From an uncultured Candidatus Saccharibacteria bacterium (lineage in GTDB: Bacteria; Patescibacteriota; Doudnabacteria; UBA920), in assembly GCA_964490395.1 (NCBI GenBank), contig CAZBAS010000004.1, forward strand, positions 30,615 to 94,614: a stretch of DNA of 64,000 nucleotides. Reading direction: 5' to 3'. Below, in pieces: positions 1,415-61,597 of the stretch (position 1 is its first letter; each line of letters starts with the position of its first letter). The position numbers were made by a program, and so were the translations under genes. The notes under the pieces were generated by a model. That model ran no database searches, was not told the origin of the DNA, and saw nothing but the letters and a program-made list of their open reading frames with translations.

Positions 1415-1552
1415 ATAAATGTATCTCAAGGCTTGATTAAACCCCCAATCTGGCTTATACTTTGTCTAGCAAATACCAACATACAACACGCTGAACCAAC
1501 GGGGTCAGCGTGTTGTTGCGTAGTAAAACACAAAAAACTTTGAGGAGACACT

Positions 1553-1972
1553 ATGTTAAACAAAACGGCCATGCAGGCCTTACTGGTTTTAGTCTTGGTT
1601 CTTATTCCTGTTTCCATTGCATCTGCACAACCTTCCACTGGCGACTTTAAAAAAGCGGCAAAACTGCAGTCTGAGCTTTCGAAACAAAGAAAGACGACCT
1701 GCAATTCTGTGAGTAGCTTTGCTGATGGGGTGAATGTGGAGTTCCATAATTGGCATAATGATGAAGAAGTGGTCATAGTTCTGGTCTTCATCAATGCTTA
1801 CCACCCAAGCGCCCAGGACCAAAAAAAGCTGCTTCAGATGGTTGGAGACGACGACTACACCTTGGAGTACTCAGAAACCCGAGTGGATGGTGGTAAGGGG
1901 CGGGAATCGGCTGGGTCCTATCTTACTTTCAAAAAACGGGAGCCAGCCAGGACGGTTCCAAAAAAGAAGTGA
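1553..1972 (+). CDS. Small secreted hypothetical protein; paralogue of the 2132..2626 product
   Basis: Signal peptide present. Shares YSETRVDGG...GSYL and FHNWHN/FQLWKN segments with the next ORF. Confidence 0.4.
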   Translation: MLNKTAMQALLVLVLVLIPVSIASAQPSTGDFKKAAKLQSELSKQRKTTCNSVSSFADGVNVEFHNWHNDEEVVIVLVFINAYHPSAQDQKKLLQMVGDDDYTLEYSETRVDGGKGRESAGSYLTFKKREPARTVPKKK

Positions 1973-2000
1973 TATTGAATAGGCACGGTCAAACTTTGTC

Positions 2001-2030
2001 GCGGGGCACCCAGCTAGTGCCCCGCGCTAT
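2001..2030 (+). terminator. Possible intrinsic terminator hairpin after the 1553..1972 gene
   Basis: GC-rich hairpin gcggggcac-ccagcta-gtgccccgc followed by a weak T-rich tract. Confidence 0.3.
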
Positions 2031-2131
2031 ATTTACTGGCAAGAAATACCCCCCTAACGCTCTTGCTATGCTCAGTTAGACGGTTCTAGCTGGGAGTTGA
2101 CTACCCAAACGGGTAGTGTGTGGAGATATGA

Positions 2132-2626
2132 ATGGAGAGGAATATGAATTTGAAAAGAGCCTTCTTATTTGCAGTCTTTGCGTTGCCAGTGTCTTTGGCC
2201 GTGGTGAGTTACATGTATGCGCCGGACCATAGCCATAGCGGCAATGCGAAGGAGTATGCGGGTCGGGCGGCGGATGCTGAAAGGGTAGTTTTTCAAAGTA
2301 GCGCGGAAGAACGAGGTGGCATTCTCTTGTACTTCCAGCTCTGGAAAAATAAAACAGAACATGAGCTCATTACCATCAAGGTGAACTCAACGCATCCATT
2401 CTGCAGAGCTCTTGGTACGGCGGCAGGAGAGTACTTTATTACTTATTCTGATAGCAGGGTGGATAGCCCCGCTAGCGAAGAAACCGATGGGTCTTATTTA
2501 GACATAAGCCCAAAGGTTCCCGAGGGAGGAATTAGATTAATAGGGCTGACCACACGAAGTCAGTCATTTCACAGAAGCTTGCCGCGGGGTAAGCTTCTTT
2601 TTCATTTTATACATATATATAAATAA
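2132..2626 (+). CDS. Small secreted/membrane hypothetical protein; paralogue of the 1553..1972 product
   Basis: N-terminal hydrophobic segment. Shares YSDSRVDSP...DGSYL with the upstream ORF. Confidence 0.35.
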   Translation: MERNMNLKRAFLFAVFALPVSLAVVSYMYAPDHSHSGNAKEYAGRAADAERVVFQSSAEERGGILLYFQLWKNKTEHELITIKVNSTHPFCRALGTAAGEYFITYSDSRVDSPASEETDGSYLDISPKVPEGGIRLIGLTTRSQSFHRSLPRGKLLFHFIHIYK

Positions 2627-2825
2627 AACCGCAGCGTACTGTCTGCGACTGGGAAAACCCAATAGTGCTTGTTAAATTACACATTTTAATGTTTGCAATG
2701 CTCAGGGTAGGTGTTTGCTTTTAAATGTGCTTTGTGGTATAGTACGCAAAGCAAAAACAAACAGCTCGCAATTAGGCGGGTTGTTTGTTTTTCCGAAATA
2801 GAATTTAGCCAAAAAGGAGAAAGTC

Positions 2826-2975
2826 GTTGAGAATTAGAAAGGTCTTAATAATTCTTTTGCTGCTCTTGTTGGCGCTGCTTGCAAGTTCGGTTTTGACTCC
2901 AACAAATAAGCAATCCCCAACTCAGCAAGAGTCGAGCGAGCCAGACCAACAGCCAAGCCCGGACCCACTGTAGGG
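2826..2975 (+). CDS. 49-aa signal-peptide micro-protein (TTG start); absent from the ORF track because it is under 60 aa
   Basis: Strong SD (aaaaaggagaaagtcg) 8 nt before TTG. Translation LRIRKVLIILLLLLLALLASSVLTPTNKQSPTQQESSEPDQQPSPDPL. Confidence 0.3.
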
Positions 2976-3035
2976 TCGGGGCACGCCAAAAAACTGCTCA
3001 AGAAATTCTTGAGCCACAAACATGAGGCGGAGCTA

Positions 3036-3167
3036 ATGAAGTTCGCGAACAACTTGCTTCTTGCTCTAGTATTTTTACTGGCATTTGCCGCAGTGTTGTA
3101 TTTCGGCAATGCCGTAGCGCAAATGATAGGGAGGATTATTGCAAAGCTCGGAAGAGTTTTGCAGTAA
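3036..3167 (+). CDS. 43-aa single-TM micro-protein
   Basis: Translation MKFANNLLLALVFLLAFAAVLYFGNAVAQMIGRIIAKLGRVLQ. Coordinates are +/-2. Confidence 0.25.
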   Translation: MKFANNLLLALVFLLAFAAVLYFGNAVAQMIGRIIAKLGRVLQ

Positions 3168-3180
3168 CATAGCTAACTCA

Positions 3181-3270
3181 AACAGAAAGCAGCTTAACCT
3201 GCTTTCTCCGACCACCCGGACACGAGTGGCAACCCGCGCATAATTACTGCGCACAAAAAAGGAGACACAT
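3181..3270 (+). promoter_or_regulatory. Conserved hairpin-rich leader element, copy 1 (three stem-loops directly before the SD of the 3271 gene)
   Basis: Stem-loops gaaagcag-cttaac-ctgctttc, ccac..gtgg and gcgc-ataattact-gcgc, then aaaaaggagacacat ATG. Homologous to the elements at 3459 and 3929. Confidence 0.5.
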
Positions 3271-3450
3271 ATGCCGGGGCTATTTGCTGGCGTTGTATTC
3301 TTTCTCATTGCGTGTGGGGTGGTAGGTTGGTGGACCGGTACAAGCTGGAAGTTTTCTTGGCTTCCGCTTGGTATAGGGATAGTGCTCTTAGTAGGGTACG
3401 TATTAGTGGGGAGTAGTGTTTCCCACGAGCCACCAAACCGCGAGAGTTAA
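3271..3450 (+). CDS. 59-aa two-TM micro-protein
   Basis: Translation MPGLFAGVVFFLIACGVVGWWTGTSWKFSWLPLGIGIVLLVGYVLVGSSVSHEPPNRES. SD ggaga 6 nt upstream. Preceded by leader copy 1. Confidence 0.35.
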   Translation: MPGLFAGVVFFLIACGVVGWWTGTSWKFSWLPLGIGIVLLVGYVLVGSSVSHEPPNRES

Positions 3451-3458
3451 AAAACCTA

Positions 3459-3549
3459 AACGGGAAGTGGCTCAGCCTGCTTTCCAAACACCACTGACCG
3501 TAAGTGGAAACCCGCGTAGGCATTACACTGCGCACAACCAGGAGAATTC
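3459..3549 (+). promoter_or_regulatory. Conserved hairpin-rich leader element, copy 2
   Basis: Sequence aacgggaagtggctcagcctgctttccaaacaccactgaccgtaagtggaaacccgcgtaggcattacactgcgcacaaccaggag. About 85% identical to copy 3. Stem 1 keeps its pairing through a G-U wobble. Confidence 0.5.
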
Positions 3550-3897
3550 ATGCTTACTGTAATTTCATTGGTTATTCTAGGCTTTCTTGCCTGGAGGAGG
3601 GAAGTTGGGCTCCGCCGCAAAATTGCCGAGTTGGAAGCTGATTTGCTTTTTGGTAACGCTACCATAACCAGCTTTGAAAAAGACGGTTATGGGTTCTTGC
3701 TGAAGCTTAGGACCGAGCATAATGGCATGAGGAGTCTATTTTTGCCACCCAATCACGAGTTTCGCCACCAAGTCGGTACTTGTGTGAGCGTTCGTATTAG
3801 ACCCAGCGGCAAAGAAAAGGCACGCCTGAGCCTTGAGCCGGCGGATAAGCTAAAAATTACCAACCTTGACGCCGTAACTGAACAGCCAGATGACTAG
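3550..3897 (+). CDS. Hypothetical membrane-anchored protein (115 aa)
   Basis: ORF with N-terminal TM (MLTVISLVILGFLAWRR). Preceded by leader copy 2 and an SD. Confidence 0.45.
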   Translation: MLTVISLVILGFLAWRREVGLRRKIAELEADLLFGNATITSFEKDGYGFLLKLRTEHNGMRSLFLPPNHEFRHQVGTCVSVRIRPSGKEKARLSLEPADKLKITNLDAVTEQPDD

Positions 3898-3928
3898 GAC
3901 CGCATAAGTCATTTTTGCTGTTCAAAAG

Positions 3929-4026
3929 AACGGGAAGTAGCTCAGCATACTTCCCAAACACCACTGACTGTAAGTGGGAACCCGCGCAGATACTACATTG
4001 CGCACAACAAAACGGAGGTGAGCACC
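3929..4026 (+). promoter_or_regulatory. Conserved hairpin-rich leader element, copy 3
   Basis: Sequence aacgggaagtagctcagcatacttcccaaacaccactgactgtaagtgggaacccgcgcagatactacattgcgcacaacaaaacggagg. Stem 1 is a perfect gggaagta/tacttccc pair. Confidence 0.5.
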
Positions 4027-4680
4027 ATGCTCAAAATATTTAGTCTTCTTAGCTTTCTGGCGACAATATTGCTTGCAGCACTATATTCGTCAAAAAAACG
4101 AGAATGGGCGGAGGCCGAAGGTCTGCTTGGTCAATCAGAGGCGTCAAAGTATAAAGGAGAAATTTTTGTCGTCGGTTTTATAGAGACGGCAAAGTGTGTC
4201 ACATTTGCACTTATTGGCGTTGACGGATGGACTACTCTAGAAGTTTTTGAGGGTAGTCCAATTCTAGAGGGGTTGCGAAAGAGGTCACAGCACCTTCTTT
4301 GGTTTTCTCTGAGTTGTCTCACGGAAGGTGACACGGCACCCAAAAGGAACCCTGCACGTTTTCTCGATTTTACGAGATTGCTTCAGCGCGCAGATCTTCT
4401 TCAAAGGCACCTTGGTGACATCGCAATAAAATTCCATTCGTTCCCTAAAATGCATCAAGAGGATGCTATCCTTTCAGCGGGGGAAGCAGCAGACATCCTA
4501 GTTGAGTGCTGCAAGGGGTTTAATGCTATTCATGGCGTTAGAATTGCATTGTGGGTGGACTCAATGAGGGGTATGTATGGTGACGAATCTGAGATATTAA
4601 AGGTTCTCGATAAGCTCGAAGAGGATCTTGGCATTTCGTCAATCCGTCGGTTGATGCAACTTCTTCCTGAAGAATCCTAA
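4027..4680 (+). CDS. Hypothetical protein with N-terminal TM
   Basis: The track ORF starts at GTG 4018. ATG at 4027 has better SD spacing (aacggaggtgagcacc ATG). Confidence 0.45.
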   Translation: MLKIFSLLSFLATILLAALYSSKKREWAEAEGLLGQSEASKYKGEIFVVGFIETAKCVTFALIGVDGWTTLEVFEGSPILEGLRKRSQHLLWFSLSCLTEGDTAPKRNPARFLDFTRLLQRADLLQRHLGDIAIKFHSFPKMHQEDAILSAGEAADILVECCKGFNAIHGVRIALWVDSMRGMYGDESEILKVLDKLEEDLGISSIRRLMQLLPEES

Positions 4681-4744
4681 ACTTACACCTCAAGTCCACT
4701 TGGACTACTCACAGCTGGGGTGTGTGCAATTTCAAAAACTAAGG

Positions 4745-4850
4745 CGATCGCTGTGATCGTCTTTTTCTTTTACCAATTTTCCGTCGGAGTGGTCATCCCG
4801 CTCAGTGGAATACTAACCACGCTTAGCGTGGTCATCTTTGCAACGGGCTT
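4745..4850. repeat. Intergenic repeat R1 (palindrome-containing), paired with the copy at 5560
   Basis: Shares gatcgtctttttctttt(a/g)ccaattttc, actaaccacgc(t/c)tagcgtggtcat (itself a perfect palindrome) and ggtcatctttgcaacgg with 5560..5690. Confidence 0.55.
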
Positions 4851-5006
4851 CATCCAATTCAAAAAACAGCAGTATTGCCGGAAGGTGTATTTTGTGTTAA
4901 AGTATAGCCGGCATTTTGAACCACATGCGTGGGAAAAAATGGCCATAGGCACACAAATTAAAAAATGTGCAACAAACAACCCGACGGAACAAAAAGAAGG
5001 TGGAAA

Positions 5007-5495
5007 ATGAAATTCAGAACTACAATTGTGGTAGGTTTTCTCACACTGCTCGCTATCGGAGCATTTAGTTTCTATGCACACAACGGCTCGGCCGCAACGC
5101 CGCAGAAACAGTTAGCCACAATCTATTTGGCAATCGCGAATAGGCCGGGTGCGGTTGAAAATCAAGAGCACGATGCAACGCATACTTCTGGTGCGCTAAC
5201 CGTTGATGGGACAAGGTTTGAGATTCAGTTCATCTCAAACTTTTCTAACGCCGATATGCCGGCAACCATTACTAGGATTGGGAAAGATCATACGGAGATT
5301 TTGACAATCTCCAGAAGTGGTGATCTTATCGAATCCTACGACATGCCCAACACGCCTGGGGCAACGCCTCAGAACAGGTGGAGCCAAAAAGAAGGTGGTG
5401 CGGAAAACGACCAGGCCATGGGCACTGTTCGTCGCGACAGTTGGTTGAAAATTCTGGCTGAGAAGCTTCAACCGCCTCCGGCACCTGTAGGCTAA
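5007..5495 (+). CDS. Hypothetical secreted/membrane-anchored protein
   Basis: SD aaggtgg before ATG 5007 (MKFRTTIVVGFLTLLAIGAFSF...). The track start at 4965 is a 5' extension. Confidence 0.5.
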   Translation: MKFRTTIVVGFLTLLAIGAFSFYAHNGSAATPQKQLATIYLAIANRPGAVENQEHDATHTSGALTVDGTRFEIQFISNFSNADMPATITRIGKDHTEILTISRSGDLIESYDMPNTPGATPQNRWSQKEGGAENDQAMGTVRRDSWLKILAEKLQPPPAPVG

Positions 5496-5559
5496 TACGC
5501 TGTCCCACGCAGCTGGGACATAGCCGCGGGCAAATTCATGAACTTACAAACACAGACGA

Positions 5560-5690
5560 TGCTGCGATCGTCTTTTTCTTTTGCCAATTTTCATTTTGAT
5601 GGTTGCAAAGATGACCATTGCAACCAAAATTTCCGTCGCAATGGTCATCTTTGCAACGGCAGTACTAACCACGCCTAGCGTGGTCATTCC
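5560..5690. repeat. Intergenic repeat R2, with nested inverted repeats
   Basis: Homologous to 4745..4850. Contains gttgcaaagatgaccat ... atggtcatctttgcaac, a 17-bp perfect inverted repeat. Confidence 0.55.
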
Positions 5691-5907
5691 CAACCTGATT
5701 GGGAATCCAGTCGGCCTACCAGCCGACATCAAACTAGTCCAATAATCCCGCTTGTATGGCGGGACTGGATCCCCGCCCGCTTCGTCCGAACTACAGCGCG
5801 GCGAGCATTCGCGAGGATGACAGAAAATATTTTTATAGATAAAAAGAAAGAGTAGTGCAGGATGGGCTTTTAGGCCAATCACTTACACTACTCTTTTGTT
5901 GATGCTT

Positions 5908-6312
5908 TTACCACTCTGGGTATTCAGTCCTTGCGACTGTCCTACCAGTGTGGCCCATCCCTTTTAAGTGCTTCTTCTCTTCACCAACCATGGCTGAGCG
6001 AAAAGCAATTATCGCCAGCACAACGCCAATTATGAACGTGTGCATCATTGGCATCTCCATAAAATTGAAGAGTCCAACTTCAAACTCGATAATTGCTAAC
6101 GTGATAATCGCCACTGTAGCAGCCAATACGTAACTATTTTTCCATGCCATCGCGCCGATGGCAATTATGAATAGTACAACGAAGGCCGTCGCAAGCATCT
6201 CCTTCGAAAAGGTATTGCTGAGAAAGCTCTCAAAAGATTGGAAAGGGTCGTTGTTAACGACCTGCAAAAATATTGTTGTTAAAAGCATTTGTATTATTCC
6301 TCCCGGAATCAA
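5908..6312 (-). CDS. Hypothetical integral membrane protein (about 4 TM)
   Basis: Hydrophobicity pattern only. Confidence 0.4.
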   Translation of the reverse strand: MIPGGIIQMLLTTIFLQVVNNDPFQSFESFLSNTFSKEMLATAFVVLFIIAIGAMAWKNSYVLAATVAIITLAIIEFEVGLFNFMEMPMMHTFIIGVVLAIIAFRSAMVGEEKKHLKGMGHTGRTVARTEYPEW

Positions 6313-6721
6313 ATTGTAATATTGTGATTTTGCGTGTAAGTAACTGTTTTATTGGGTTGTTTTGCTCTTATTAAGAGCTTTTCTTCCCACAGTTACCAGG
6401 TGTTTGTGTTAAAAATACTATAACATATTATGCACAATATGTCAAGTATTAACGCACAAAAACACCGTATGTTACAGCGGGGAACGGGCAATTGCTTAAT
6501 TACCTCTTGCTTAGTAGGGATTAAATAAACTTCCGCAGAGAAACGGTAAATTAACTTTTATCTATGCAGTTTTCCCCAGGTGAGCATGATAGTATATATG
6601 TATGTCCTCTACACGGGATGGAGTCAGCATCGCCTGCAGCTTTGCTTACACATCCAGCACCTTCTGGAAAAAATACCATTAAGTAAGAAGTGCGGTAGGA
6701 CAGAAAAGCTTAAACTCAAAT

Positions 6722-10277: not shown

Positions 10278-13034
10278 TTGTTTATGAATTTCATGAAGAT
10301 TAAAAAAGCTGCATCTATAGCAGTGGCACTCTTCCTCCTGGTAGCAACTACCATGGTGGGCGCTGCCCCAGCATTTGCTGCAGGACCAAACCTTATTGCT
10401 AACCCTTCCTTAGAAACCGCAGCAGGAGCCCTTCCTGCGAGCTGGCAAAAAGGTGGATTTGGTACTAACACTACAGTGTTTACCTATCCGGTAGCTGGCG
10501 TTGATGGTGCCAATGCAGCAAAAGTAGCCATGACTGCTCGCACTGGTGGCGATGCAAAATGGTTTTTTAACGATGTAGCTATAACTCCAGGAAAGAGCTA
10601 CACCTTTTCCGATCAGTACAAGTCTACCGTAGCAACCAAGCTTGTGGCTCGCTATACCTCCACCACAAATGTACTCAGCTACATAGACATGGGTAGCGTT
10701 GCTTCTTCTGCAGGCGCATGGAAAACATTTACCTATACATTTACTGCTCCTGCTGGCAGCGCCAAGATGACCGTATTCCACCTTATAGCTGCAGTAGGGG
10801 AACTTACGACCGATGCATATTCTTTAACTGAAAATACTGTTACGCCTCCTACAGATACCACTGCTCCAACTGTTGCCTTAACCGCACCTGCGGCAAATGC
10901 TACTGTGTCTAACACCGTAACCCTCAGCGCTACTGCTTCCGACAATGTTGGTGTAGCAGGCGTGCAATTTATAGTAGATGGCGCAAATGTAGGCGCTGAA
11001 GATACTACTGCTCCATACAGCATTTCTTGGGATTCCAAAACTGTTGCAAACGGCAGCCACACTGTTTCGGCAAAAGGCCGGGATGCTGCAGGGAACACTA
11101 CCACTACAACTCCTATTTCTATAACTGTATCTAATACCGTAACCCCTCCGGCAGATACTACTGCTCCAACGGTTACTCTGACCGCACCAGCTGCAAACGC
11201 AACAGTCACCGGCACTATAAATCTTACTGCTACTGCAACTGATAACGTTGCGGTAACGGGCGTGCAGTTTATAGTAGATGGCGCAAATTTTGGCAGCGAA
11301 CTTACTACAGCTCCATACACTGCTGCGCTCGACACGACTACCTTGACCAATGGTGCTCACACCATAGCGGTAGCAGCGCACGATGCAGCAAACAACTCCA
11401 AAACTACTACTGCTATTTCCGTAACGGTATCTAACACTGTAACCCCTCCAGCAACTAACCTTATTGCTAACCACTCTTTGGAGATGGCAACCGGAAGCCT
11501 GCCTACCAACTGGAGCAAGGGGAGCTGGGGTACAAACAACGCAACATTTACCTACCCAGTAGCTGGCGTAGACGGTACAAAAGCCGCTAAAGTTGCCATG
11601 ACTACGTACACCAATGGCGATGCCAAGTGGTTCTTTGATGATGTTGTCATAACGCCTGGTAAAAACTACACCTTCTCTGAGCAGTACAAGTCTACGGTGC
11701 CAACCACCGTTTTAGCTCGCTACACAAATGCAGATGCAAGCGTGGCATATGTTGAATATGCAAACCTTCCTTCTTCGGGCAACCAGTGGACTACGTTCTC
11801 TCATGAATTTACTGCTCCAGCTGGGGTTGCTAAAGTCACTGTATTCCATTTGCTCTCTGCAGTAGGGGAATTGACCATAGATAACTACACCATGGGTGAC
11901 CAGTCCAACAATACTTCCGCCTTCTTCTCACAGGGTATAGTAAGCTTCACGTTTGATGACGGTTGGATCTCCCACTACGACACTGTACTTCCTATACTCA
12001 ACGCAGCTGGTCTTAAAGGTTCGTTCTACATTATTACTGACCCAATGAACCAGGTGGTAGAGCCGAATAAAGTTCTAAACTCTGGGCTTGAAACAGATAG
12101 CGGCACTGGTACTCCAACCAACTGGACAAAGAGCAGCTGGGGTACGAACAATGCTGCGTTTACCTACCCAACTGCTGGTAAAACAGGCAATGGCGCAAAA
12201 GTTGCCATAACCTCCTACACCGATGGCGATGCAAAATGGTTCTTTGATGACATTGCTATAGTGGCAAATGCTCAGTATCGCTTCCGCGATTCCTACAAGA
12301 GCACAACCCCAACTACACTTACAGCTCGCTTTACCATGGCGGACAATACCGTTGCCTACCGCGACCTGGCAGTCTTGCCAAGCAGCAACAACAACTGGGC
12401 TACTACCGACATACCATTTACTGCTCCTGCAAACGTACAAAGCGTAACCATTTTCCACCACCTCGCAAGCGTAGGCGAACTCACTATAGACGATGCTTCA
12501 CTTACTCTGTACGCCATTTACATGAATCCAAGCCAGGTAAAGGATATGCAAGCAGCGGGACATGAAGTTGGTGGCCACACTAAGACACATCCTGACCTTA
12601 CTACCCTTACCGTACAACAGGCAACCGATGAAATTGTTGGTTCTCGCACTGCGCTTCAGAACATTGGCATAACGGTTAACACCATGGTGTATCCGTACGG
12701 TGCTGCAAACCCAACCATACAGCAGATAACCAAGAACGCAGGATATCTTGCTGCTCGCACGGTTGAAGCTGGGTATAACACTAAAGCAACCGATCACTAT
12801 GCGCTTCGTGTGCAGAACGTAGGTGTTGGTACTACCTTGGCCGATGTGCAAGGTTGGGTAACCACTGCCGCTACTGACCACACCTGGCTCATATTGGTAT
12901 TCCACCAGGTAGACCTGAGTGGCGATACCTATGGCACAACTCCAGCCCTGTTCCAGCAAATGGTAGATTACGTAAAAACTCAACCAGTACAGGTCCGCAC
13001 CATGGACGATGTACGAACAGAGCTCAATCCATAA
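10278..13034 (+). CDS. 918-aa secreted multidomain protein: 3x CBM4/9-like modules, 2x bacterial Ig-like modules and a NodB-type polysaccharide deacetylase (CE4) domain
   Basis: Signal peptide. Three copies of NLIANxSLE...WxKGxWGTNxxxFTYPxAG...AKVAxTxxTxGDAKWFFxDVxIxPGKxYTFS. Two copies of TTAPTVxLTAPAANATV...VQFIVDGAN (Big-like). CE4 motifs TFDDGW and HEVGGHTKTHP, with CBM 3 inserted between them. Confidence 0.7.
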   Translation: MFMNFMKIKKAASIAVALFLLVATTMVGAAPAFAAGPNLIANPSLETAAGALPASWQKGGFGTNTTVFTYPVAGVDGANAAKVAMTARTGGDAKWFFNDVAITPGKSYTFSDQYKSTVATKLVARYTSTTNVLSYIDMGSVASSAGAWKTFTYTFTAPAGSAKMTVFHLIAAVGELTTDAYSLTENTVTPPTDTTAPTVALTAPAANATVSNTVTLSATASDNVGVAGVQFIVDGANVGAEDTTAPYSISWDSKTVANGSHTVSAKGRDAAGNTTTTTPISITVSNTVTPPADTTAPTVTLTAPAANATVTGTINLTATATDNVAVTGVQFIVDGANFGSELTTAPYTAALDTTTLTNGAHTIAVAAHDAANNSKTTTAISVTVSNTVTPPATNLIANHSLEMATGSLPTNWSKGSWGTNNATFTYPVAGVDGTKAAKVAMTTYTNGDAKWFFDDVVITPGKNYTFSEQYKSTVPTTVLARYTNADASVAYVEYANLPSSGNQWTTFSHEFTAPAGVAKVTVFHLLSAVGELTIDNYTMGDQSNNTSAFFSQGIVSFTFDDGWISHYDTVLPILNAAGLKGSFYIITDPMNQVVEPNKVLNSGLETDSGTGTPTNWTKSSWGTNNAAFTYPTAGKTGNGAKVAITSYTDGDAKWFFDDIAIVANAQYRFRDSYKSTTPTTLTARFTMADNTVAYRDLAVLPSSNNNWATTDIPFTAPANVQSVTIFHHLASVGELTIDDASLTLYAIYMNPSQVKDMQAAGHEVGGHTKTHPDLTTLTVQQATDEIVGSRTALQNIGITVNTMVYPYGAANPTIQQITKNAGYLAARTVEAGYNTKATDHYALRVQNVGVGTTLADVQGWVTTAATDHTWLILVFHQVDLSGDTYGTTPALFQQMVDYVKTQPVQVRTMDDVRTELNP

Positions 13035-15895: not shown

Positions 15896-15928
15896 ACGGA
15901 AAGCTTTGCTTTCCGTATTTTATTTTCT
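15896..15928 (+). terminator. Intrinsic terminator after the LPXTG gene
   Basis: acggaaagc-tttg-ctttccgt followed by attttatttt. Confidence 0.6.
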
Positions 15929-15929
15929 T

Positions 15930-16010
15930 GTTACATGCTTTTTGCTACATGTTACATGTTACATGCTCTACGCTACATGCTCTATGTTACATAGTATGCT
16001 GCATTGCTGT
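15930..16010. repeat. Array of ttacatg/ctacatg heptamer direct repeats
   Basis: tgttacatgctttttgctacatgttacatgttacatgctctacgctacatgctctatgttacat. Inverted copies catgtaacatgtaac lie just upstream of the terminator. Confidence 0.55.
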
Positions 16011-16876: not shown

Positions 16877-16977
16877 GTCCAAATTTACAAATGTGACAAA
16901 TCTACAAATACCTACTAATCCTGGTTACGTAATTTGTATTATTTGTAGCCATTTGTAGATTTGTCTTATTCGTAGAT
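16877..16977. repeat. Palindromic intergenic repeat, family C, copy 1
   Basis: gacaaatctacaaat and atttgtagatttgtc form a 15-bp perfect inverted repeat. Homologous to 61493..61597. Confidence 0.6.
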
Positions 16978-17700
16978 TTGAACAATATGTTAATAGAAAT
17001 TAAAGACTTAAAAAAAGACTACATAAACGACGAGGTCGTAACTCCGGTTCTCCACGGGGTAAGTTTTGATATAGAAGAAGGGGAGTTTGTGGCCATTATG
17101 GGCCCTTCAGGGAGTGGTAAGTCAACACTCATGCACATTCTTGGTTTTTTGGACCGGTCTACTGGCGGCACATACAAGTTTGAAGGCAAAAATACTACCA
17201 CCTTTACCGATGAAGAGCTGGCGCGCATTCGCAATGAACGTGTCGGGTTTGTGTTCCAGGCGTTTAACTTGCTTGCTAGAACTACGGTACTCGATAACGT
17301 AAAACTGCCACTTATTTATGGTACTAAAAAGAACCAAGATCAACTGGCTAAGAAGGCATTGGAATCTGTGGGCCTGGGTCACCGGTTAGACTTTTATACC
17401 AACCAAATTTCTGGTGGAGAAAAGCAGCGCGTGGCCATTGCTCGGGCCCTGGCTACTGACCCTGCTGTTATATTTGCGGATGAGCCAACGGGAAACCTGG
17501 ACTCAAAGAGCGGTAATACCGTGATGCATATTCTGCAACGTCTGAACGATGAAGGCAAAACCATCATCTTAGTTACTCATGAAATGGACACGGCAGAACA
17601 CGCCAAGCGCCTCATAAAAGTAAAGGACGGAAACATTGTTGCAGATGAAAAAATTAAACACCGAACTATCGCCAAAGCGGAAGGAGAATTAGTTAAGTAG
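16978..17700 (+). CDS. ABC transporter ATP-binding protein, MacB/LolD/FtsE-type
   Basis: Walker [10 protein letters not shown], signature [15 protein letters not shown], Walker [13 protein letters not shown]. Confidence 0.85.
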
Positions 17701-18115: not shown

Positions 18116-19357
18116 GTGAAATTCATCGGTGAAATAAAATTAGTTATCAAAGGTTTGCTGTCCCGCAAAGGACGGTCGTTTTTGACGATTCTGGGAATTG
18201 TGATAGGAGTGGCGGGTGTTATTACTATTATTTCTCTTGGTGCGGGCGCGCAGAGCTTGGTGTTGTCGCAATTAACGTCCCTCGGAAGTAATTTAGTTGG
18301 TATTTTACCGGGCAAATCAAACGAAACAGGGCCTCCAGCGGCTGTGTTTGGGGTGCAAATTACGACTTTAACACTGGACGATGCTCATGCGTTATTAAAT
18401 AACCCAAGACTGCCCCATGTAGCAGCAGTAGCTGCGTTTACAAGAGGTAGCGCTACAGTAGTATGGAGAAACAAAGATGTAGACACGAGCTTTACTGCAA
18501 CAGAAGGCAGCTTACCCGACGTGCAAAACACACCTATTGCAGTAGGGCGGTTTTTTGACGAACGCGAAGAAAGAAGCGGTGCAAATGTTATTGTACTGGG
18601 CTGGGACGTAAAGAATGAGCTTTTTGATACGCAAGACCCCATTGGCCAGGTGGTAAAAATAAAAAACATACCATTTGAAGTAATTGGTGTAACCAAAAAG
18701 CAGGGGACTGTGGCGTTTCAAAACCAGGACGACCAAGTATATATGCCCCTATCCATTGGGCAAAAACAAATTTTAGGAATAAATTACTTGCAGTTTATTC
18801 GCGCGCGCATAGACCAGACTGCGTTTGTAAAGTCCACCATTGCCGACATAGAACAGTTGTTAAAGGAGCGGCATCGTATTCGTACTGAGGCGGAGGTGGA
18901 TTACTCTGTGCGGGATTTAGCAGACGCCATAAAACTGATAGGAAGCATTACAGACGCGCTTAAATATTTTCTTGCGGCCATGGCAGCGCTTAGTCTTGTG
19001 GTAGGGGGCATAGGTATAATGAACATTATGTTGGTTACGGTTGCAGAGCGTACGCGCGAGATAGGCCTGCGTAAGGCCGTGGGCGCCACAAATAAAAATA
19101 TTCGTAATCAATTTTTGCTTGAGTCCAGCACCGTAACGCTGCTTGGCGGCATAGTTGGTATTATTATAGGCTCACTTCTTGCCTATGGTGCTGCGCTGGG
19201 TGCGCGCTACGCCGGCTATACCTGGGACTTTGTTATTTCCCCGGTGTCTATTTTGGTTGCGGTTGGGGTATCGGTTGGAGTAGGGGTCCTCTTTGGTTAC
19301 TACCCCGCCCGCAAGGCCGCAAAACTGAACCCGATTGAAGCGCTAAGGTACGAATAA
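18116..19357 (+). CDS. ABC transporter permease, FtsX/MacB-like
   Basis: N-terminal TM, large extracytoplasmic domain, then 3 C-terminal TM helices with FtsX-like features. Confidence 0.8.
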   Translation: MKFIGEIKLVIKGLLSRKGRSFLTILGIVIGVAGVITIISLGAGAQSLVLSQLTSLGSNLVGILPGKSNETGPPAAVFGVQITTLTLDDAHALLNNPRLPHVAAVAAFTRGSATVVWRNKDVDTSFTATEGSLPDVQNTPIAVGRFFDEREERSGANVIVLGWDVKNELFDTQDPIGQVVKIKNIPFEVIGVTKKQGTVAFQNQDDQVYMPLSIGQKQILGINYLQFIRARIDQTAFVKSTIADIEQLLKERHRIRTEAEVDYSVRDLADAIKLIGSITDALKYFLAAMAALSLVVGGIGIMNIMLVTVAERTREIGLRKAVGATNKNIRNQFLLESSTVTLLGGIVGIIIGSLLAYGAALGARYAGYTWDFVISPVSILVAVGVSVGVGVLFGYYPARKAAKLNPIEALRYE

Positions 19358-19828
19358 GTATCGATGCTAATATACTAATTTACTAATGAATACTAATTAT
19401 ACAAATAAAAACCAAAAGTTAATTTATCCGGAACTCTCTTTTATAATAACTGGGATATGTTTCGATGTTCACAATGCACAAGGGAGGTTTTGCCGAGAAA
19501 AACAATATGCCGATGCAATAGAAATAATATTAAAGGAGCGTCAAATTCCTTATGCAAGAGAGCATAGAGTTGTAGATACAGGCAATGTCATTGATTTCAT
19601 TATTGATGATAGAATTGTCCTAGAACTCAAAGCAAAGAGGCTCATAGAAAAAGACGACTTTTATCAAGTACAACGATATCTGCAGTCTACAAATAAACCA
19701 TTGGGTTTGTTGGTAAACTTTAGAAATCGTTATATAAAACCCATTAGGATTGTCCGAATTGATACGGATGCGCGACAGCGCTTTCTGGATTAGTATCATT
19801 AGTAAATTAGTATATTAGCATCGATACT
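19358..19828 (+). mobile_element. Putative small mobile element: about 38-bp terminal inverted repeats enclosing a single GxxExxY/PD-(D/E)XK gene
   Basis: Left end agtatcgatgctaatatactaatttactaatgaatacta and right end tagtatcattagtaaattagtatattagcatcgatact are reverse complements apart from one indel. Inserted exactly between the stop of one permease gene and the start of the next. Two miniature ORF-less copies occur elsewhere. Confidence 0.55.
19386..19793 (+). CDS. GxxExxY-family protein (PD-(D/E)XK nuclease superfamily)
   Basis: PELSFIITGICFDVHNAQG...YADAIEIILKERQIPYAREHRV...VIDFIIDDRIVLELKAKR...LGLLVNFRN matches the family consensus pattern. Confidence 0.65.
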   Translation: MNTNYTNKNQKLIYPELSFIITGICFDVHNAQGRFCREKQYADAIEIILKERQIPYAREHRVVDTGNVIDFIIDDRIVLELKAKRLIEKDDFYQVQRYLQSTNKPLGLLVNFRNRYIKPIRIVRIDTDARQRFLD

Positions 19829-23827: not shown

Positions 23828-23914
23828 AATGTCCAATTTCTAATATCTAATTCTTAATGAGTAGGGCAGTCTTTTGTCCTACTTTAGACATTAGAAATTA
23901 GGTATTAGATATTT
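23828..23914. repeat. AT-rich palindromic repeat, family A, copy 1
   Basis: aatgtccaatttctaatatctaattcttaatg ... gacattagaaattaggtattagatattt. Confidence 0.6.
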
Positions 23915-35376: not shown

Positions 35377-35492
35377 AATGTCTAATTTCTAATATCTAAT
35401 TCCTAATGTCCAGATACCTTTTTGTCTTTCATCCAACTTCGCTAAAGTTATGTCGGACAAGTTAGACCTTAGAAATTAGGAATTAGATATTT
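35377..35492. repeat. AT-rich palindromic repeat, family A, copy 2
   Basis: aatgtctaatttctaatatctaattcctaatgtcc ... gaccttagaaattaggaattagatattt. Confidence 0.6.
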
Positions 35493-36174: not shown

Positions 36175-36711
36175 TTACACTTCTTTAAGAATTTTCCGCA
36201 ATACTTCAGCCTGCAATTTTACTCGCTCAAATGCATCGTATGGGTTGCTAATGCGAAGGTGGAAATGATCAAGTAAGGTATGAAGTGAAGGAATTTTTTT
36301 TAGGCCTATGCGCATACCAAAGGTGTAGTATAGAGTCCATAAATCTATAACGGAAAGATCGTACGGAAACGCTGTAGCCTGTTTTCGAAACATTTGCCTA
36401 AAAGAAAACAGCTGACTTGCACTGGGTACTGCAAGGGTCGCGTCTGGGCGAAAACGAGTCGTTACTTCTTTTATAAAATCGAGCGGCTTGGGGGAGTTTT
36501 GAAGCACTGAAATGTCTACGCGCACGCTTGCTGCATGGCCTTGCAGGGTCTCGGAAAGGAGGCTGTTTCGCACATAGGTCGAGTAGTTGGCTTTTTCCAA
36601 TAGGTTGTCTTTGTCCAGCAACACAGCACCAAACTGCACAACAACGTCGCGCTCTACATCGGGCCCGCTAGTTTCTAAGTCTATAAGAAGGATGTCTTTG
36701 ATAAAACGCAT
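36175..36711 (-). CDS. DEDD-family 3'-5' exonuclease paralogue
   Basis: LLIDLETSGPD Exo I motif. Tandem with the previous gene. Confidence 0.6.
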   Translation of the reverse strand: MRFIKDILLIDLETSGPDVERDVVVQFGAVLLDKDNLLEKANYSTYVRNSLLSETLQGHAASVRVDISVLQNSPKPLDFIKEVTTRFRPDATLAVPSASQLFSFRQMFRKQATAFPYDLSVIDLWTLYYTFGMRIGLKKIPSLHTLLDHFHLRISNPYDAFERVKLQAEVLRKILKEV

Positions 36712-36808
36712 GAGTCTCGATGCTAATATACGAATGAATACTAATAATACAAATAAGTGCCAATGTATTGATTCGTATCATTAGTACATTGGTATATTCG
36801 TATCGATA
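36712..36808. mobile_element. Miniature ORF-less copy (MITE-like) of the GxxExxY element family
   Basis: Left arm tctcgatgctaatatacgaatgaatactaataatacaaataag retains ATG AAT ACT AAT.. (MNTN..), the first codons of the GxxExxY gene. Right arm gtatcattagtacattggtatattcgtatcgatact is identical to the right arm at 59050..59082. Confidence 0.55.
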
Positions 36809-37297
36809 CTACCGGTATTGTTCTAGGAGTTCTTTTCCCTGGGTTATATTGTCGAACTTATCAAGTATGAGCGTACCTAGTAGGTGATCTATTTCATGCT
36901 GACACACCCTGGCTATCCAACCATTGTCACTTATGGTTTGTTTTTCGCCGTTCATATCAAAGTACTCAACAGTAATATTTTTTGGTCTGGTAACATTGCC
37001 GAACAGCCCAGGGAGCGAAAGGCACCCTTCTTCTATGGCCGCAGTTTCGGAAGAAGTCTTAACAATTTTTGGATTAATGATAGGGAATACGGGAATACCG
37101 GAATGCTCTAAAAAGATAAGTGCTAAGTTCAAATTTCTACCGACCTGGGGAGCAGCCAGCCCAATGCCATCTGCCTTTATAACCGTATCGAGCATATCGC
37201 GGATAAGGCGTTTAATATCCTTATTCAATGGGAAAACTACATCCTCAACGGGACGTCGTAGTACTTGTGCTGGAAGTTTTACAATAGGGAGAACCAT
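36809..37297 (-). CDS. def: Peptide deformylase
   Basis: GIGLAAPQVG, EGCLSLPG and HEIDHLLG: the three canonical PDF motifs. Confidence 0.9.
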   Translation of the reverse strand: MVLPIVKLPAQVLRRPVEDVVFPLNKDIKRLIRDMLDTVIKADGIGLAAPQVGRNLNLALIFLEHSGIPVFPIINPKIVKTSSETAAIEEGCLSLPGLFGNVTRPKNITVEYFDMNGEKQTISDNGWIARVCQHEIDHLLGTLILDKFDNITQGKELLEQYR

Positions 37298-37385
37298 AAG
37301 TCATGTAAACATATAATCATCTAAACATCTAAGCAGGAATACCGCGCTCATGGGTTCTTGTTTACATGTTTAAATGTTTTTATGC

Positions 37386-37655
37386 TTATATATTCTGCTG
37401 TGCTTTCTTAACTAAGAACACAAACAGTTTTGCGGGAAATTTAACATTGCTTTGCTCACGCACTTCTTGTGCGGTCTTACGGAGGAAATCGTGATTATAT
37501 TTCAACGCAAGCTTCAAGTAAAAGCCGAAGTGCTTTGTATCACCAAAAGCTTTCGACAACTCATCAGCGAGAAGATGTGCGGGAGAGTGAATAAACTGCT
37601 TAGTCTCTTGGCCGCGTTTTTTCAATTCTTTAATTCGGTTTGCGTTTATCTCCAT
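37386..37655 (-). CDS. Hypothetical basic helical protein (89 aa)
   Basis: ORF only. Confidence 0.3.
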   Translation of the reverse strand: MEINANRIKELKKRGQETKQFIHSPAHLLADELSKAFGDTKHFGFYLKLALKYNHDFLRKTAQEVREQSNVKFPAKLFVFLVKKAQQNI

Positions 37656-38617: not shown

Positions 38618-38703
38618 AATGTCTAAGTTCTAATACCCAATTTCTAACAATCGGAAATTCTACGGTATGTACATTGGACATTGGAAATTAGGTATTAGAC
38701 ATT
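38618..38703. repeat. AT-rich palindromic repeat, family A, copy 3
   Basis: aatgtctaagttctaatacccaatttctaaca ... gacattggaaattaggtattagacatt. Confidence 0.55.
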
Positions 38704-42660: not shown

Positions 42661-43590
42661 ATGCGAAACTCGTACACCACATTTTTTAAAAAAGCATTCC
42701 TTGCGTTCAGCTTGTCGGCCTCACTCTTGCTTCCCCATGCTGCCCTTGCAGCAGCAGTAGACTTACCGTGCACACCCTCCCAAGCGCCAGCAACAGTCGC
42801 AGGACAAGACACCTCTACCCCAAACAACGACCTCTTTGACTGCATTAACCGCCTCTACAAATACGCCCTGGTTATATCGAGTATTGCGGGTGTATTTATG
42901 ATTATGCTTGGCGGGTACATGTATATCTTCTCAGGTGGCAATGACAAGAAGGTAAGCACAGCAAAAAGGTTTATTACTACGTCACTCCCGGGTATAGCCG
43001 TGCTGCTAACGGGGTTTTTACTTCTGAAACAGATCAACCCGAGCTTATTACAAATTAAAAGCATTACTCCGGCACAAATAGCGCAGTCTGATTGGGCCAT
43101 CCTTCCTCACGACGGCGGATTGGGAGGCGGTGGTGGAACTGGTGGTGGAGGCGGGGGAAATGTAGGCACAGGAAAATGCGAGCCAGTCACTAGTGGCCCA
43201 GCATCTGTCGCCAATTTGCAAGGTACTTGTTTTGGCGCAAACGCAGCAAAAGCATCAAGCATTGCAAACCTTGAAAGTAACGGCAACCCGGCAAGGCATG
43301 GCGACAAATGCGTTGATGGGAACTATGCTTCATGGGGTCTATTCCAAATCAATATTTCAGCCAATACCATGGCAGGATTAAATTGCCCCAAGGCATTTGA
43401 TGTGCCGGCACGAGCAAGTACGCTCTTGTCCGGGGGAGTATACAACTGCCATGTTATCAACAAACCACTCTATGACCAGTGTGTGGCTGCGGCAACAAAT
43501 GAATCCACCAATATTGAAGCAGCGTGCCGCATATCTAACAACGGGACCAGATGGGGCGCATGGAGCACTAACAAAACTTGTAAATTTTAG
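42661..43590 (+). CDS. Secreted protein: VirB2/TrbC-pilin-like two-TM N-terminal module + Gly linker + lysozyme-like (SLT/Rpf-like) C-terminal domain
   Basis: Signal peptide and two TM helices (YALVISSIAGVFMIMLGGYMYIF; SLPGIAVLLTGFLLLKQI). C-terminal LESNGNPARHGDKCVDGNYASWGLFQIN resembles the SLT/Rpf ES..GN...G.GL.Q motif. Confidence 0.5.
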   Translation: MRNSYTTFFKKAFLAFSLSASLLLPHAALAAAVDLPCTPSQAPATVAGQDTSTPNNDLFDCINRLYKYALVISSIAGVFMIMLGGYMYIFSGGNDKKVSTAKRFITTSLPGIAVLLTGFLLLKQINPSLLQIKSITPAQIAQSDWAILPHDGGLGGGGGTGGGGGGNVGTGKCEPVTSGPASVANLQGTCFGANAAKASSIANLESNGNPARHGDKCVDGNYASWGLFQINISANTMAGLNCPKAFDVPARASTLLSGGVYNCHVINKPLYDQCVAAATNESTNIEAACRISNNGTRWGAWSTNKTCKF

Positions 43591-43623
43591 ACCTTGAAGA
43601 GCCATAATTAACTTTAAATACTT

Positions 43624-44097
43624 ATGTTCGAAAATAATAAAAATATTATCATTGGCGTAATTGTTTTTGTTATGTTGGTGGTCATTGCGGCGCTCGCATA
43701 TGCTGCGTTCAGTAATCCAAGTAAGACGGCGACGCCATTACCCACAAATGCGAACCCCACCGCAAACTCAAACACAGTGGCCATCTCGACCCCGAAAGGT
43801 GCTGTGGTAGTAAACAACTTTACCCAGAACGTACTTTCAAAGACAGAGTCATCTATGACCATCGCCGATACAAACGACTATCAAATTGTCTATTTTCAAA
43901 AAGAGGGGAGTTTCCTTATTACTCTTGCATCCCAGCCAGCAACTAGCGCGCGTATAAAAGCAGAAACAGCCTTTTTGAGCATATTAAACATAAACAAAGA
44001 ACAAGCCTGCAAGCTTACAGTGGCCCTGAAGATACCTTACTCAGTAGATGAGAACCTCGCAGGTCCCGATTACGGTTTAAGCTTTTGCCCTCACTAA
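43624..44097 (+). CDS. Hypothetical secreted protein
   Basis: N-terminal TM/signal only. Confidence 0.4.
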   Translation: MFENNKNIIIGVIVFVMLVVIAALAYAAFSNPSKTATPLPTNANPTANSNTVAISTPKGAVVVNNFTQNVLSKTESSMTIADTNDYQIVYFQKEGSFLITLASQPATSARIKAETAFLSILNINKEQACKLTVALKIPYSVDENLAGPDYGLSFCPH

Positions 44098-44147
44098 ACG
44101 ATGTACTGATAATGCAGCGCTTTAGAAAATAAAATGAACATAAACCT

Positions 44148-45020
44148 ATGCAGCACTTTAAAATAAAAAAAATTATATTCGCCGCTATGGTAGCAGCCAC
44201 CTGTTTGCTTCCCCACGCAGCCTTTGCCGCAGCAGTGGACTTACCATGCACACCCTCCCAAGTACCAGCAACAGTTGCCGGACAAGATACCGCAGCACCG
44301 AACAATGATCTATACAACTGCATTAACCGCCTCTACAAATACGCCCTGGTTATATCGAGCATAGCTGGTGTATTTATGATTATGCTTGGCGGGTACATGT
44401 ATATTTTCTCCGGAGGTAATGACAAGAAGGTTAGCACAGCAAAAAGTTTTATTACTACGTCTCTTCTGGGTATAGCAGTATTGCTGACCGGGTTTTTACT
44501 TTTGAAACAGATTAACCCCAGTTTGACTACGGTCAAAAGTATAACGCCGCAACAAATTGACTATCAAGAGTGGTATGTAATGAGGGCAGAAGATGGCATA
44601 GCCCAGGTAAACACCGGCCTATCGAATAGCGGGGCAGCAGTGGCAGCCCAGTGCCCGGGAGGGCAACTCGTGGATATCCCGCAAGGGGAGTTTCAGCAGT
44701 ACGATAAAAATAAGACATGCCCTACAGTCTTGGAGGCGCTACGGAAATTAAAAACTGCCGCCACTGCAGCTGGAATATCATTTAAAGTAAACGACTCGTA
44801 CGGCCCAGCGCATAAGAGTTCGTGCCATAAAGAATCAGGAACTTGCGTAGATATTGGCCTCACTGGATCAACTACATGGGACCAGCTTTGTAAAGTAGTA
44901 AACTCCACGGGATTATTTAAAATATTAAACGAATCGGGAGGCAATACGCCAAATTGCGGGACCTTTATAGCAACAAGTAAATCCACGGCCCCACATATTC
45001 ATTTAAATTTATTGAACTAG
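44148..45020 (+). CDS. Paralogue of 42661..43590: same pilin-like N-terminal module + peptidase M15 (VanY/L,D- or D,D-peptidase)-like C-terminal domain
   Basis: N-terminal ~135 aa nearly identical to the upstream paralogue. C-terminal SSCHKESGTCVDIGL (compare M15 SxHxxGxAxD) and TAPHIHLNL (HxH). Confidence 0.5.
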   Translation: MQHFKIKKIIFAAMVAATCLLPHAAFAAAVDLPCTPSQVPATVAGQDTAAPNNDLYNCINRLYKYALVISSIAGVFMIMLGGYMYIFSGGNDKKVSTAKSFITTSLLGIAVLLTGFLLLKQINPSLTTVKSITPQQIDYQEWYVMRAEDGIAQVNTGLSNSGAAVAAQCPGGQLVDIPQGEFQQYDKNKTCPTVLEALRKLKTAATAAGISFKVNDSYGPAHKSSCHKESGTCVDIGLTGSTTWDQLCKVVNSTGLFKILNESGGNTPNCGTFIATSKSTAPHIHLNLLN

Positions 45021-50200: not shown

Positions 50201-50295
50201 ACGTAATCATTTAAACATAAAATCATATAAACATATGAGCATTCAGATCTGCGCGTGTTTATATGCTTGCATGATTATATGTTTATATAGTATTT

Positions 50296-51237: not shown

Positions 51238-51250
51238 AGTATGAAGAAAT

Positions 51251-51346
51251 GCCTAATTCCTAATGTCTAATTTCTAATATCCGGGAATTTCTTATGTCTT
51301 TTGATTAGACATTGGAAATTAGAAATTAGACATTTCCTATAACTTA
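51251..51346. repeat. AT-rich palindromic repeat, family A, copy 4
   Basis: gcctaattcctaatgtctaatttctaatatcc ... gattagacattggaaattagaaattagacattt. Confidence 0.55.
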
Positions 51347-57719: not shown

Positions 57720-57842
57720 ATACTTGCTAATTTAATTATGACCAACGCTTATATAAACATAAAAACATTTAAACATATAAGCAGGCTATTTCTAGCGCGT
57801 CCTATTGTTTAAATGTTTATATGGTTTCATGCTTAGATGAAG

Positions 57843-58973: not shown

Positions 58974-58974
58974 A

Positions 58975-59082
58975 ATGTATCGATTCTAATATGCGAATAA
59001 TTACTAATGATACGAATCATGACCAATAGCGCACATGTATTAATTAGTATAATTAGTACATTGGTATATTCGTATCGATACT
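58975..59082. mobile_element. Miniature ORF-less copy (MITE-like) of the GxxExxY element family, in the secE-nusG junction
   Basis: Left arm gtatcgattctaatatgcgaataattactaatgatac. Right arm ttagtacattggtatattcgtatcgatact is identical to the right arm of the 36712 copy. Confidence 0.5.

Positions 59083-59429: not shown

Positions 59430-61597
<2,168 letters not shown>

Follow-up and report, generated by a model that had tools for sequence, protein, structure and literature searches.

The DNA analysed here, referred to as the window, is a stretch of 64,000 nucleotides (contig CAZBAS010000004.1, positions 30,615 to 94,614 of the forward strand; assembly GCA_964490395.1) from an uncultured bacterium listed as Candidatus Saccharibacteria. 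It is a segment of a bacterial chromosome of the Candidate Phyla Radiation (CPR)/Patescibacteria that carries gyrB, pheT, gltX and pyrG and has a GC content of 45%. The CPR placement rests on homologues of its GT2 protein with ~60% identity, which carry the names Woesebacteria, Paceibacterota and Nomurabacteria. Three direct repeats on the + strand, with conserved cores of about 80 bases each at 3181-3259, 3459-3540 and 3929-4010 according to an alignment of the three intergenic regions, precede the consecutive genes orf59, orf115 and orf217. A previous interpretation made without database searches (the sequence-only reading) had claimed a leader repeated before three consecutive genes, which the homologous cores bear out; its copy coordinates also proved right upon reading of positions 2400-5200 and alignment. 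Each copy comprises three predicted hairpins (hp1, hp2 and hp3), followed by CACAA and the Shine-Dalgarno sequence (SD) of the next gene. The copies are laid out as follows, with bit scores for R1, a covariance model built from the three of them:

3181 to 3259, + strand: leader copy 1; hp1 3184-3192/3199-3207, hp2 3212-3215/3226-3229, hp3 3236-3240/3248-3252, CACAA to 3256, SD AGGAG 3260-3264; R1 score 83.2 bits
3459 to 3540, + strand: leader copy 2; hp1 3462-3470/3477-3485 (with three G·U pairs), hp2 3491-3495/3503-3507, hp3 3514-3519/3528-3533, CACAA to 3537, SD AGGAG 3540-3544; R1 score 101 bits
3929 to 4010, + strand: leader copy 3; hp1 3932-3940/3947-3955, hp2 3961-3965/3973-3977, hp3 3984-3989/3998-4003, CACAA to 4007, SD GGAGGTGA 4014-4021; R1 score 102.1 bits

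Copies 2 and 3 are the closest pair (core identity 0.85), copy 1 being more distant from both (0.65 to copy 2, 0.62 to copy 3), and the mean column identity of the three-copy alignment is 84%. A search of the window for the composite motif AGTGGNAACCCGCG-N(5-20)-TGCGCACAA gives three occurrences, versus not one in 100 shuffles. Homology is restricted to the intergenic core. Over the 90 nt ahead of it and over the opening 90 nt of each coding sequence, only 44-52 of 90 positions match, which is background level. At its 3' end, the core terminates with CACAA 2-6 nt before the SD, which is AGGAG in copies 1 and 2 and GGAGGTGA in copy 3; the distance of 10-15 nt that the sequence-only reading had assigned to the SD instead fits the start codon, which lies 9-16 nt from the core end. 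Since the spacing to the SD is tight (2-6 nt) and that to the preceding stop codon is loose (8-31 nt), the leader is anchored to the downstream gene. The two halves of the element differ in character. In the 3' half (AGUGG-N-AACCCGCG, the hp3 stem and CACAA), all copy pairs are 77-82% identical, and 22 of 23 positions of one block are invariant; hp2 and hp3 are embedded in nearly unchanging sequence of the form AGUGG-N-AACCCGCG ... UGCGCACAA. By contrast, the 5' half of copy 1 is no more similar to the other copies than background (48-55% identity). Thus, hp1 looks like a structure-only component and the 3' block like a sequence-specific one. No peptide is shared among the copies; because they are open in three different reading frames, no common peptide is encoded. 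Terminal inverted repeats were not found by reading at any of the copies.

Folded alone, each copy yields the same three hairpins, with z-scores versus shuffles of -4.65, -2.34 and -3.13 for copies 1, 2 and 3, and the RNAalifold consensus consists of these very hairpins, in agreement with the three stem-loops per copy proposed before. The helices are short: hp1 has 9 bp, hp2 has 5 bp (in copy 1 only 4 bp, CCAC/GUGG, shifted by one column) and hp3 has 5-6 bp of the form GCG(C/U)A(G).../(C/U)UGCGC. Between copy 1 and copy 2 or 3, 5-7 of the 18 stem positions of hp1 are changed while 8-9 of the 9 pairs are kept (P = 0.0006-0.01 versus random substitution of an equal number of positions); copy 1 retains a perfect 9-bp hp1 via compensatory changes, and three pairs are changed on both sides. 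The G-U wobble that had been pointed out earlier is confirmed: copy 2 contains four G·U pairs, three of them in hp1 and the fourth in hp3. Across all copies, every standard pair that deviates from Watson-Crick geometry is a G·U of the + strand; copy 2 has four of these and copy 3 has one, with zero A·C mismatches. Among contigs of the same species that are 99.4-100% identical, a single nucleotide polymorphism falls within the copies (3199 C>U), where it converts a G-C pair of hp1 in copy 1 to G·U. Six G·U (this polymorphism included) versus zero A·C correspond to a two-sided binomial P of ~0.03, a value to be read with the caveat that the events may not be independent. In copy 2, all 20 of 20 pairs form on the + strand, as opposed to 16 of 20 on the minus strand. 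Read from the minus strand, each of these wobbles would become A·C, which favors a sense-strand RNA, and the element probably acts as such. The earlier argument that pairing is kept while sequence varies, hence a transcribed RNA, holds insofar as it concerns hp1 pairing and the orientation of the wobbles, but not covariation, which with three sequences is not significant alone. As judged from the sequences, pairing maintenance, the invariant 3' block and the pairing-preserving polymorphism argue that the RNA is under selection. A GGG/CCC pseudoknot and loop-loop contacts were looked for by eye and are not conserved in copy 1.

The three copies sit within one apparent transcription unit that extends from a promoter-like site at ~2715-2745 to a terminator at 4741-4763, the first strong + strand terminator downstream; the + strand terminator scan gave no strong terminator between the genes of the operon. 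For comparison we used related genomes designated L013 (GCA_964648985.1), L017, L018 and L019; the GT2 protein encoded nearby has counterparts with 92% identity in L013 and 83% in L017. Apart from the leader copies, the operon contains the following features:

~2715 to 2745, + strand: putative sigma-70-type promoter TTGCTT-17-TATAGT, recognized by reading and not among the consensus-scan results
2753 to 2792, + strand: 17-bp hairpin in the operon 5' leader, minimum free energy (MFE) -25.7 kcal/mol, z -4.33, terminator-like with an A-run in the 5' arm and a U-run in the 3' arm; not a repeat copy
2827 to 2973, + strand: orf48, the first cistron, orthologue of a 50-residue gene in relatives (43% identity to the L013 protein, E 7e-12); no repeat copy upstream
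2996 to 3014, + strand: 8-bp hairpin, then CACAAAC and the orf43 SD, similar to the succession of hp3, CACAA and SD in which the repeat ends
3036 to 3167, + strand: orf43, small hydrophobic protein, absent from related operons; frame favored by the codon-usage test
3271 to 3450, + strand: orf59, small membrane protein with orthologues in two related species, where it lies 11 nt after the preceding gene and is without leader
3550 to 3897, + strand: orf115, N-terminal hydrophobic segment plus soluble part; coding frame supported, no homologue found
4027 to 4680, + strand: orf217, N-terminal hydrophobic segment plus soluble part; coding frame supported, no homologue found
4741 to 4773, + strand: intrinsic terminator closing the operon, a 10-bp stem followed by TTTTCTTTT (terminator scan); a homologous terminator follows the 58-residue gene in L013 and L018

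The orthologous operons of L013 and L018 are preceded by TTGCTT-17-TATGGT, which matches this promoter layout. The hairpin at 2753-2792 directly follows the putative promoter and could be an attenuator or a bidirectional terminator; the L013 and L018 leaders differ. CA-rich ACAA(C/A) tracts like that before orf43 also precede the SD of orf162 (~4968-4990) and that of an L013 gene (~3660-3680); this may be a general trait of translation starts in this genome.

In the codon-usage frame test, orf43, orf59, orf115 and orf217 scored like held-out real genes, and did so in the annotated frame only. The sequence-only reading had described the products behind the leaders as tiny membrane proteins. This description suits orf59, which by reading is mostly membrane-spanning, but the three products measure 59, 115 and 217 residues, the third not being small, and orf115 and orf217 have only one N-terminal hydrophobic segment each. 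The products of orf59, orf115 and orf217 are not paralogues; a tandem duplication of gene plus leader is ruled out, as the downstream proteins and their coding DNA are unrelated. orf115 matched only itself among 1.84 billion representatives, as did orf217 in a database of 5.8 billion clusters, and none of the operon proteins scored above threshold against Pfam, PHROGs or PADLOC. For orf217, AlphaFold2 produced a model too poor to be used (pLDDT 43). Upstream of the operon, orf139 (1553-1972) and orf164 (2132-2626) are adjacent genes for secreted proteins that are distant paralogues (26% identity, E 1e-9) and match no Pfam, PHROG or PADLOC family.

Comparison with the related genomes places the leader in an evolutionary context. 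Homologues of orf59 are confined to two other species clusters, one represented by L013 and the other by L018/L019, and neither has the leader. There, the operon consists of a promoter, genes for 111, 50 (the orf48 orthologue) and 58 residues (the orf59 orthologue) separated by 11-nt spacers, and a terminator; leader, orf43, orf115 and orf217 are all missing, with part of the L013 island (at 4229-4602, where the assembly has a run of N, translated as X) lying outside the comparison. L017 lacks the entire ~5-kb island, its CarboxypepD_reg-domain gene being directly followed by the GH26 gene. The corresponding region of the window (~1420-6490, from the CarboxypepD_reg-domain gene to the GH26 gene) is a hypervariable island of small secreted or membrane proteins, whose gene set differs in L013 and L018 and is missing from L017. 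Island genes that are shared with the relatives diverge far more than the flanks, with amino acid identities of 57% for orf59, 43% for orf48 and ~66% for orf162 (longest tblastx segment) versus 92% for the GT2 protein. As relatives contain no copy and the orphans match only themselves, the leader is a private feature of this species, tied to gained genes. The operon of the sister species (111, 50 and 58 residues, abutting genes, no leader) is, to judge from this comparison, the ancestral state. What the comparison shows is that the cassette is linked to gene gain in the hypervariable island, which we consider the most informative new fact.

Wider searches likewise returned the leader in one species only. 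The sequence-only reading had recommended a comparison with Rfam and a covariance-model search of related genomes. Scanning the whole window against Rfam 15 (cmscan, gathering threshold) gave 0 matches, and at E<=10 (positions 2600-4800, and copies 2 and 3 alone) there were chance-level matches, none of which spans a copy; no family matches the leader even at E = 10. Run with filters off, R1 recovered the three known copies, all in one operon and one orientation, and no further copy in the 64-kb window or in the syntenic loci of related species, so that the model could be built but gained no additional member. Exact-pattern scans with the invariant core of 596 Gb of species-representative genomes, of JGI metagenomes and of IMG/VR produced chance matches only, which either lie in coding DNA of high GC content or reach <=20 bits with R1; the 35 viral loci that have the 17-nt core by construction reached <=20 bits with R1 (default filters). 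blastn against phage and plasmid collections found no match. ARAGORN detected 0 tRNA or tmRNA genes in the window, speaking against a tRNA-like origin, and the CGGGAAGURGCUCAGC 5' end of copies 2 and 3 is only superficially like a tRNA 5' end.

The sequence-only reading had further proposed an attenuator, a thermometer or a riboswitch-like element. These interpretations are unsupported because there is no terminator, no conserved SD sequestering and no conserved promoter, nor is there an Rfam match. The + strand terminator scan of the copies revealed no U-tract after any hairpin, each hp3 being followed by ACAA, which does not fit a transcription attenuator or intrinsic terminator. The SD lies outside the three hairpins, 2-6 nt beyond hp3, and according to base-pair probabilities it is predicted to pair with a different sequence in each copy, these sequences not being homologous; an RNA thermometer (ROSE, fourU), in which the SD or start codon is paired inside the conserved hairpin, does not fit this arrangement. 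A generic riboswitch, understood as a recurring aptamer with covariation, does not agree with three copies in one species and a non-significant covariation control.

We tentatively favor the idea, which may well be correct though we would not put it at even odds, that the repeat is a lineage-specific intercistronic leader cassette acting in cis as a sense RNA on mRNA stability or translation start, and that it arrived with gene gain. This idea proceeds from what is observed, namely that the element is repeated and folded, shows a bias to the sense strand, lies within an operon and is missing from relatives, and that two of the genes are orphans; the role in stability and translation is what we infer. 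The copies front the resident orf59 and two orphans, orf115 and orf217. The cassette would have been duplicated or recombined into place along with the new genes. Its folded part might mark and protect the 5' side of each cistron, either by impeding 5'-to-3' decay once the transcript has been processed or by offering a shared factor a place to bind, and the leader would separate the translation start region from upstream coding RNA, while the short unstructured A/C-rich tail would present the SD of the next gene. The added genes could then be translated and stabilized independently.

Several points weigh against the proposed cassette function. Only three related sequences exist, and the similarity of the copies could reflect recent duplication alone. 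In the shuffle control, 82 of 500 shuffles of the three sequences reach the observed covariation value, so that formal covariation support is lacking. Nothing points to a nuclease or a binding factor. The leader of orf59 is dispensable as such, since the orthologue in relatives works without it. Local folds give the SD an unpaired probability of 0.26-0.35, no better than for the leaderless orf48 and orf43; an improvement of SD accessibility by the leader is thus not seen, the values matching those of cistrons without the repeat.

As an alternative, the leader could be a regulated switch, in which a protein, small RNA or small molecule acting on the hp2-hp3 block favors a three-way junction, the pyrimidine-rich 3' arm of hp1 pairs with the SD to turn translation off, and the 5' arm of hp1 serves as anti-anti-SD, such that the three cistrons would be co-regulated. 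When the hp1 5' arm is omitted, the 3' arm of hp1 indeed base-pairs with the SD around hp2 and hp3 in the MFE fold of all three copies, and the most conserved bases fall in the would-be junction and at the base of P3; junction-centred conservation is typical of ligand- or protein-binding RNAs. The arm:SD duplexes are, however, not unusual relative to random windows (fractions 0.027, 0.17 and 0.14), the alternative falls short of the hp1 state by 4.6-7.5 kcal/mol in stability, hp1 is the first to be transcribed, and the SD partners in the full-length folds vary by copy. Known riboswitch classes are normally widespread, whereas this element lacks an Rfam match and has no relatives in the genomes, metagenomes and viral contigs scanned with the conserved core. 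On balance we regard a switch as rather unlikely. The contrary notion, that the copies are an evolutionary by-product, i.e., intergenic spacers copied or recombined while genes were gained in cassette fashion, much like the repeated regulatory cassettes behind modular shuffling in the hyperplastic regions of phages, and useful only for carrying an SD and providing recombination homology, would be in line with their confinement to one species, to an island variable among four related genomes, and to the flanks of orphan genes, the more so as phage promoter-early stem-loops (PeSLs) illustrate that short repeated intergenic cassettes next to orphans can drive insertion and deletion (PMC2839356). 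Yet a mere spacer would hardly combine a 5' half at background level with a perfect, compensated hp1 in copy 1, keep its 3' block all but invariant, and show pairing preserved in the only change that nearly identical strains display within the copies; we consider a by-product unlikely. Quite unlikely in our estimation is a novel, portable regulatory RNA module of narrow distribution, whose hp2-hp3 junction block would be read by a dedicated factor or ligand and which would have been copied in front of acquired or newborn orphans, plugging them into the post-transcriptional control of the operon.

Two further explanations shift the function from the transcribed leader to DNA or to the opposite strand. 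Internal promoters, with a -35 element in hp2 and a -10 element in the AT-rich hp3 loop, would endow each gene with its own short-leader transcript. Copy 1 offers CGGACA-16-CATAAT (9 of 12 matches), and by reading, TAnnnT hexamers are present in the hp3 loops of copies 2 and 3. Against this, the scan flags a promoter-like site in copy 1 only and none common to the copies, the best -35/-10 pairs of copies 2 and 3 are by reading spaced 19-24 nt apart, and the evident promoters in this and the related genomes follow TTGC..-17-TA..GT, which is absent from the copies; the length of the hp3 loop varies by 3 nt, and the G·U bias indicates selection on RNA. Internal promoters therefore appear improbable. 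Even more far-fetched is a role of the opposite strand or of the DNA itself, as terminator of an antisense RNA in the manner of type I toxin-antitoxin systems, as operator, or as a recombination site such as attC. The terminator scan flags hp1 of copies 1 and 3 as terminator-like on the minus strand, where T-rich tails follow (by reading, copy 2 has GTTTAGGTTTTTT there), and small hydrophobic proteins are encoded downstream. But the wobbles turn into A·C on the minus strand, reducing the pairs of copy 2 as described above, and no antisense promoter common to the copies is visible by reading. A type I system calls for a toxin of <~60 residues and an overlapping antisense RNA with its own promoter and terminator; the minus strand does have terminator-like hairpins, the products measure 59, 115 and 217 residues, and the wobbles favor the sense strand. 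Integron attC sites have R''(RYYYAAC)/R'(GTTRRRY) core sites at their ends and form one long imperfect hairpin; the copies have ends of AAC(A/G)G... and ...GCGCACAA, which on the minus strand read GTTTAGG, GTTCTTT and GTTTGAG and miss GTTRRRY, and they form three separate hairpins. The 3-bp variation in the spacing of the hp3 arms would also be poorly suited to a dimeric DNA binder.

If the leader cassette is functional, it would represent a clean natural case of one cis RNA module reused for unrelated, lineage-specific genes within one operon, and would bear on how orphan genes gain expression in CPR bacteria, whose post-transcriptional control is, to our knowledge, almost unstudied. Should the portable module apply, it would amount to an "adoption leader" by which a reduced CPR genome takes in new genes. 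At present, the value of the element is that of a candidate for 5'-end mapping in metatranscriptomes rather than of a new regulatory class.

Elsewhere, the window contains AT-rich intergenic repeat families made of about four periodic units of 7-8 nt (e.g., AATNTCT ... TTAGNNA), arranged with opposite polarity around a short GC-rich central hairpin. Each of these families recurs 3-5 times in the window: at 23828-23913, 35377-35491, 38618-38703 and 51248-51334; also at 37303-37408, 50201-50297 and 57751-57855; and further at 19350-19415 with 19756-19828, 36706-36810 and 58969-59082, at 16941-16981 and 61557-61597, and at 15924-15979. Possible roles are as arrayed binding sites for a protein or as bidirectional terminators of an uncommon type, and the families may be more unusual than the leader. 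Repetition also occurs within coding DNA: a gene for a surface protein of 918 residues (10278-13034) has internal tandem repeats within 10378-12260, with units 300 and 1068 nt apart and 72-75% identical, and a 300-nt segment is 87% identical between the neighboring genes 42661-43590 and 44148-45020 (region 42727-44504).

Closest in behavior among known systems are structures between cistrons that serve processing or stabilization, the PeSL cassettes and chloroplast sites of the PPR10 type. The first of these include the RNase III sites of phage T7, which are repeated and mutually homologous, the 5' stem-loop of B. subtilis cggR-gapA, and the repetitive extragenic palindromes (REP) and bacterial interspersed mosaic elements (BIME) in E. 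coli malE-malF. The leader resembles them as a structured RNA between cistrons of one transcript, expected to define and protect the ends of mRNA segments. It differs in being composed of three distinct hairpins in fixed order and orientation, tied to the downstream SD and not to the upstream stop codon. Its helices of 5-9 bp are too short for RNase III, which needs ~20 bp, and a REP consists of one palindrome only, of which a genome has hundreds of copies. Nor does a dispersed repeat of the REP/BIME type or of the type of miniature inverted-repeat transposable elements suit the three copies that R1 finds in 64 kb, given their single orientation and lack of terminal inverted repeats. Three-way-junction translational riboswitches such as the purine class come to mind because the alternative fold of the leader has a P1 (arm:SD) around two hairpins and conserved junction bases; here, however, P1 is weak and statistically unremarkable, similarity to Rfam or a wider family is lacking, and the genes hint at no ligand.

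The PeSL cassettes of T4-type phages combine a strong sigma-70 promoter with a terminator stem-loop (Arbiol et al. 2010, PMC2839356). They share with the leader that short homologous intergenic cassettes are repeated before small, mostly orphan genes in a hypervariable region, as plausible substrates of recombination and gene gain or loss. The leader, in contrast, belongs to a cellular genome, where it is part of an operon, and has no conserved promoter or U-tract; a promoter-like site in copy 1 only and the missing U-tract do not make a PeSL-type promoter/terminator cassette, and the island proteins gave no convincing match to phage families. Chloroplast sites of the PPR10 type (pentatricopeptide repeat, PPR; PMC3326301) are similar in that a conserved block is repeated between cistrons, and that a factor bound there could stop exonucleases and make the ribosome-binding site downstream accessible, but PPR sites are unstructured single-stranded RNA with a known protein, while the leader is folded and has no known or predicted binder. 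The leader belongs to none of the systems compared; it adds one more example to a kind of element already known in general terms.

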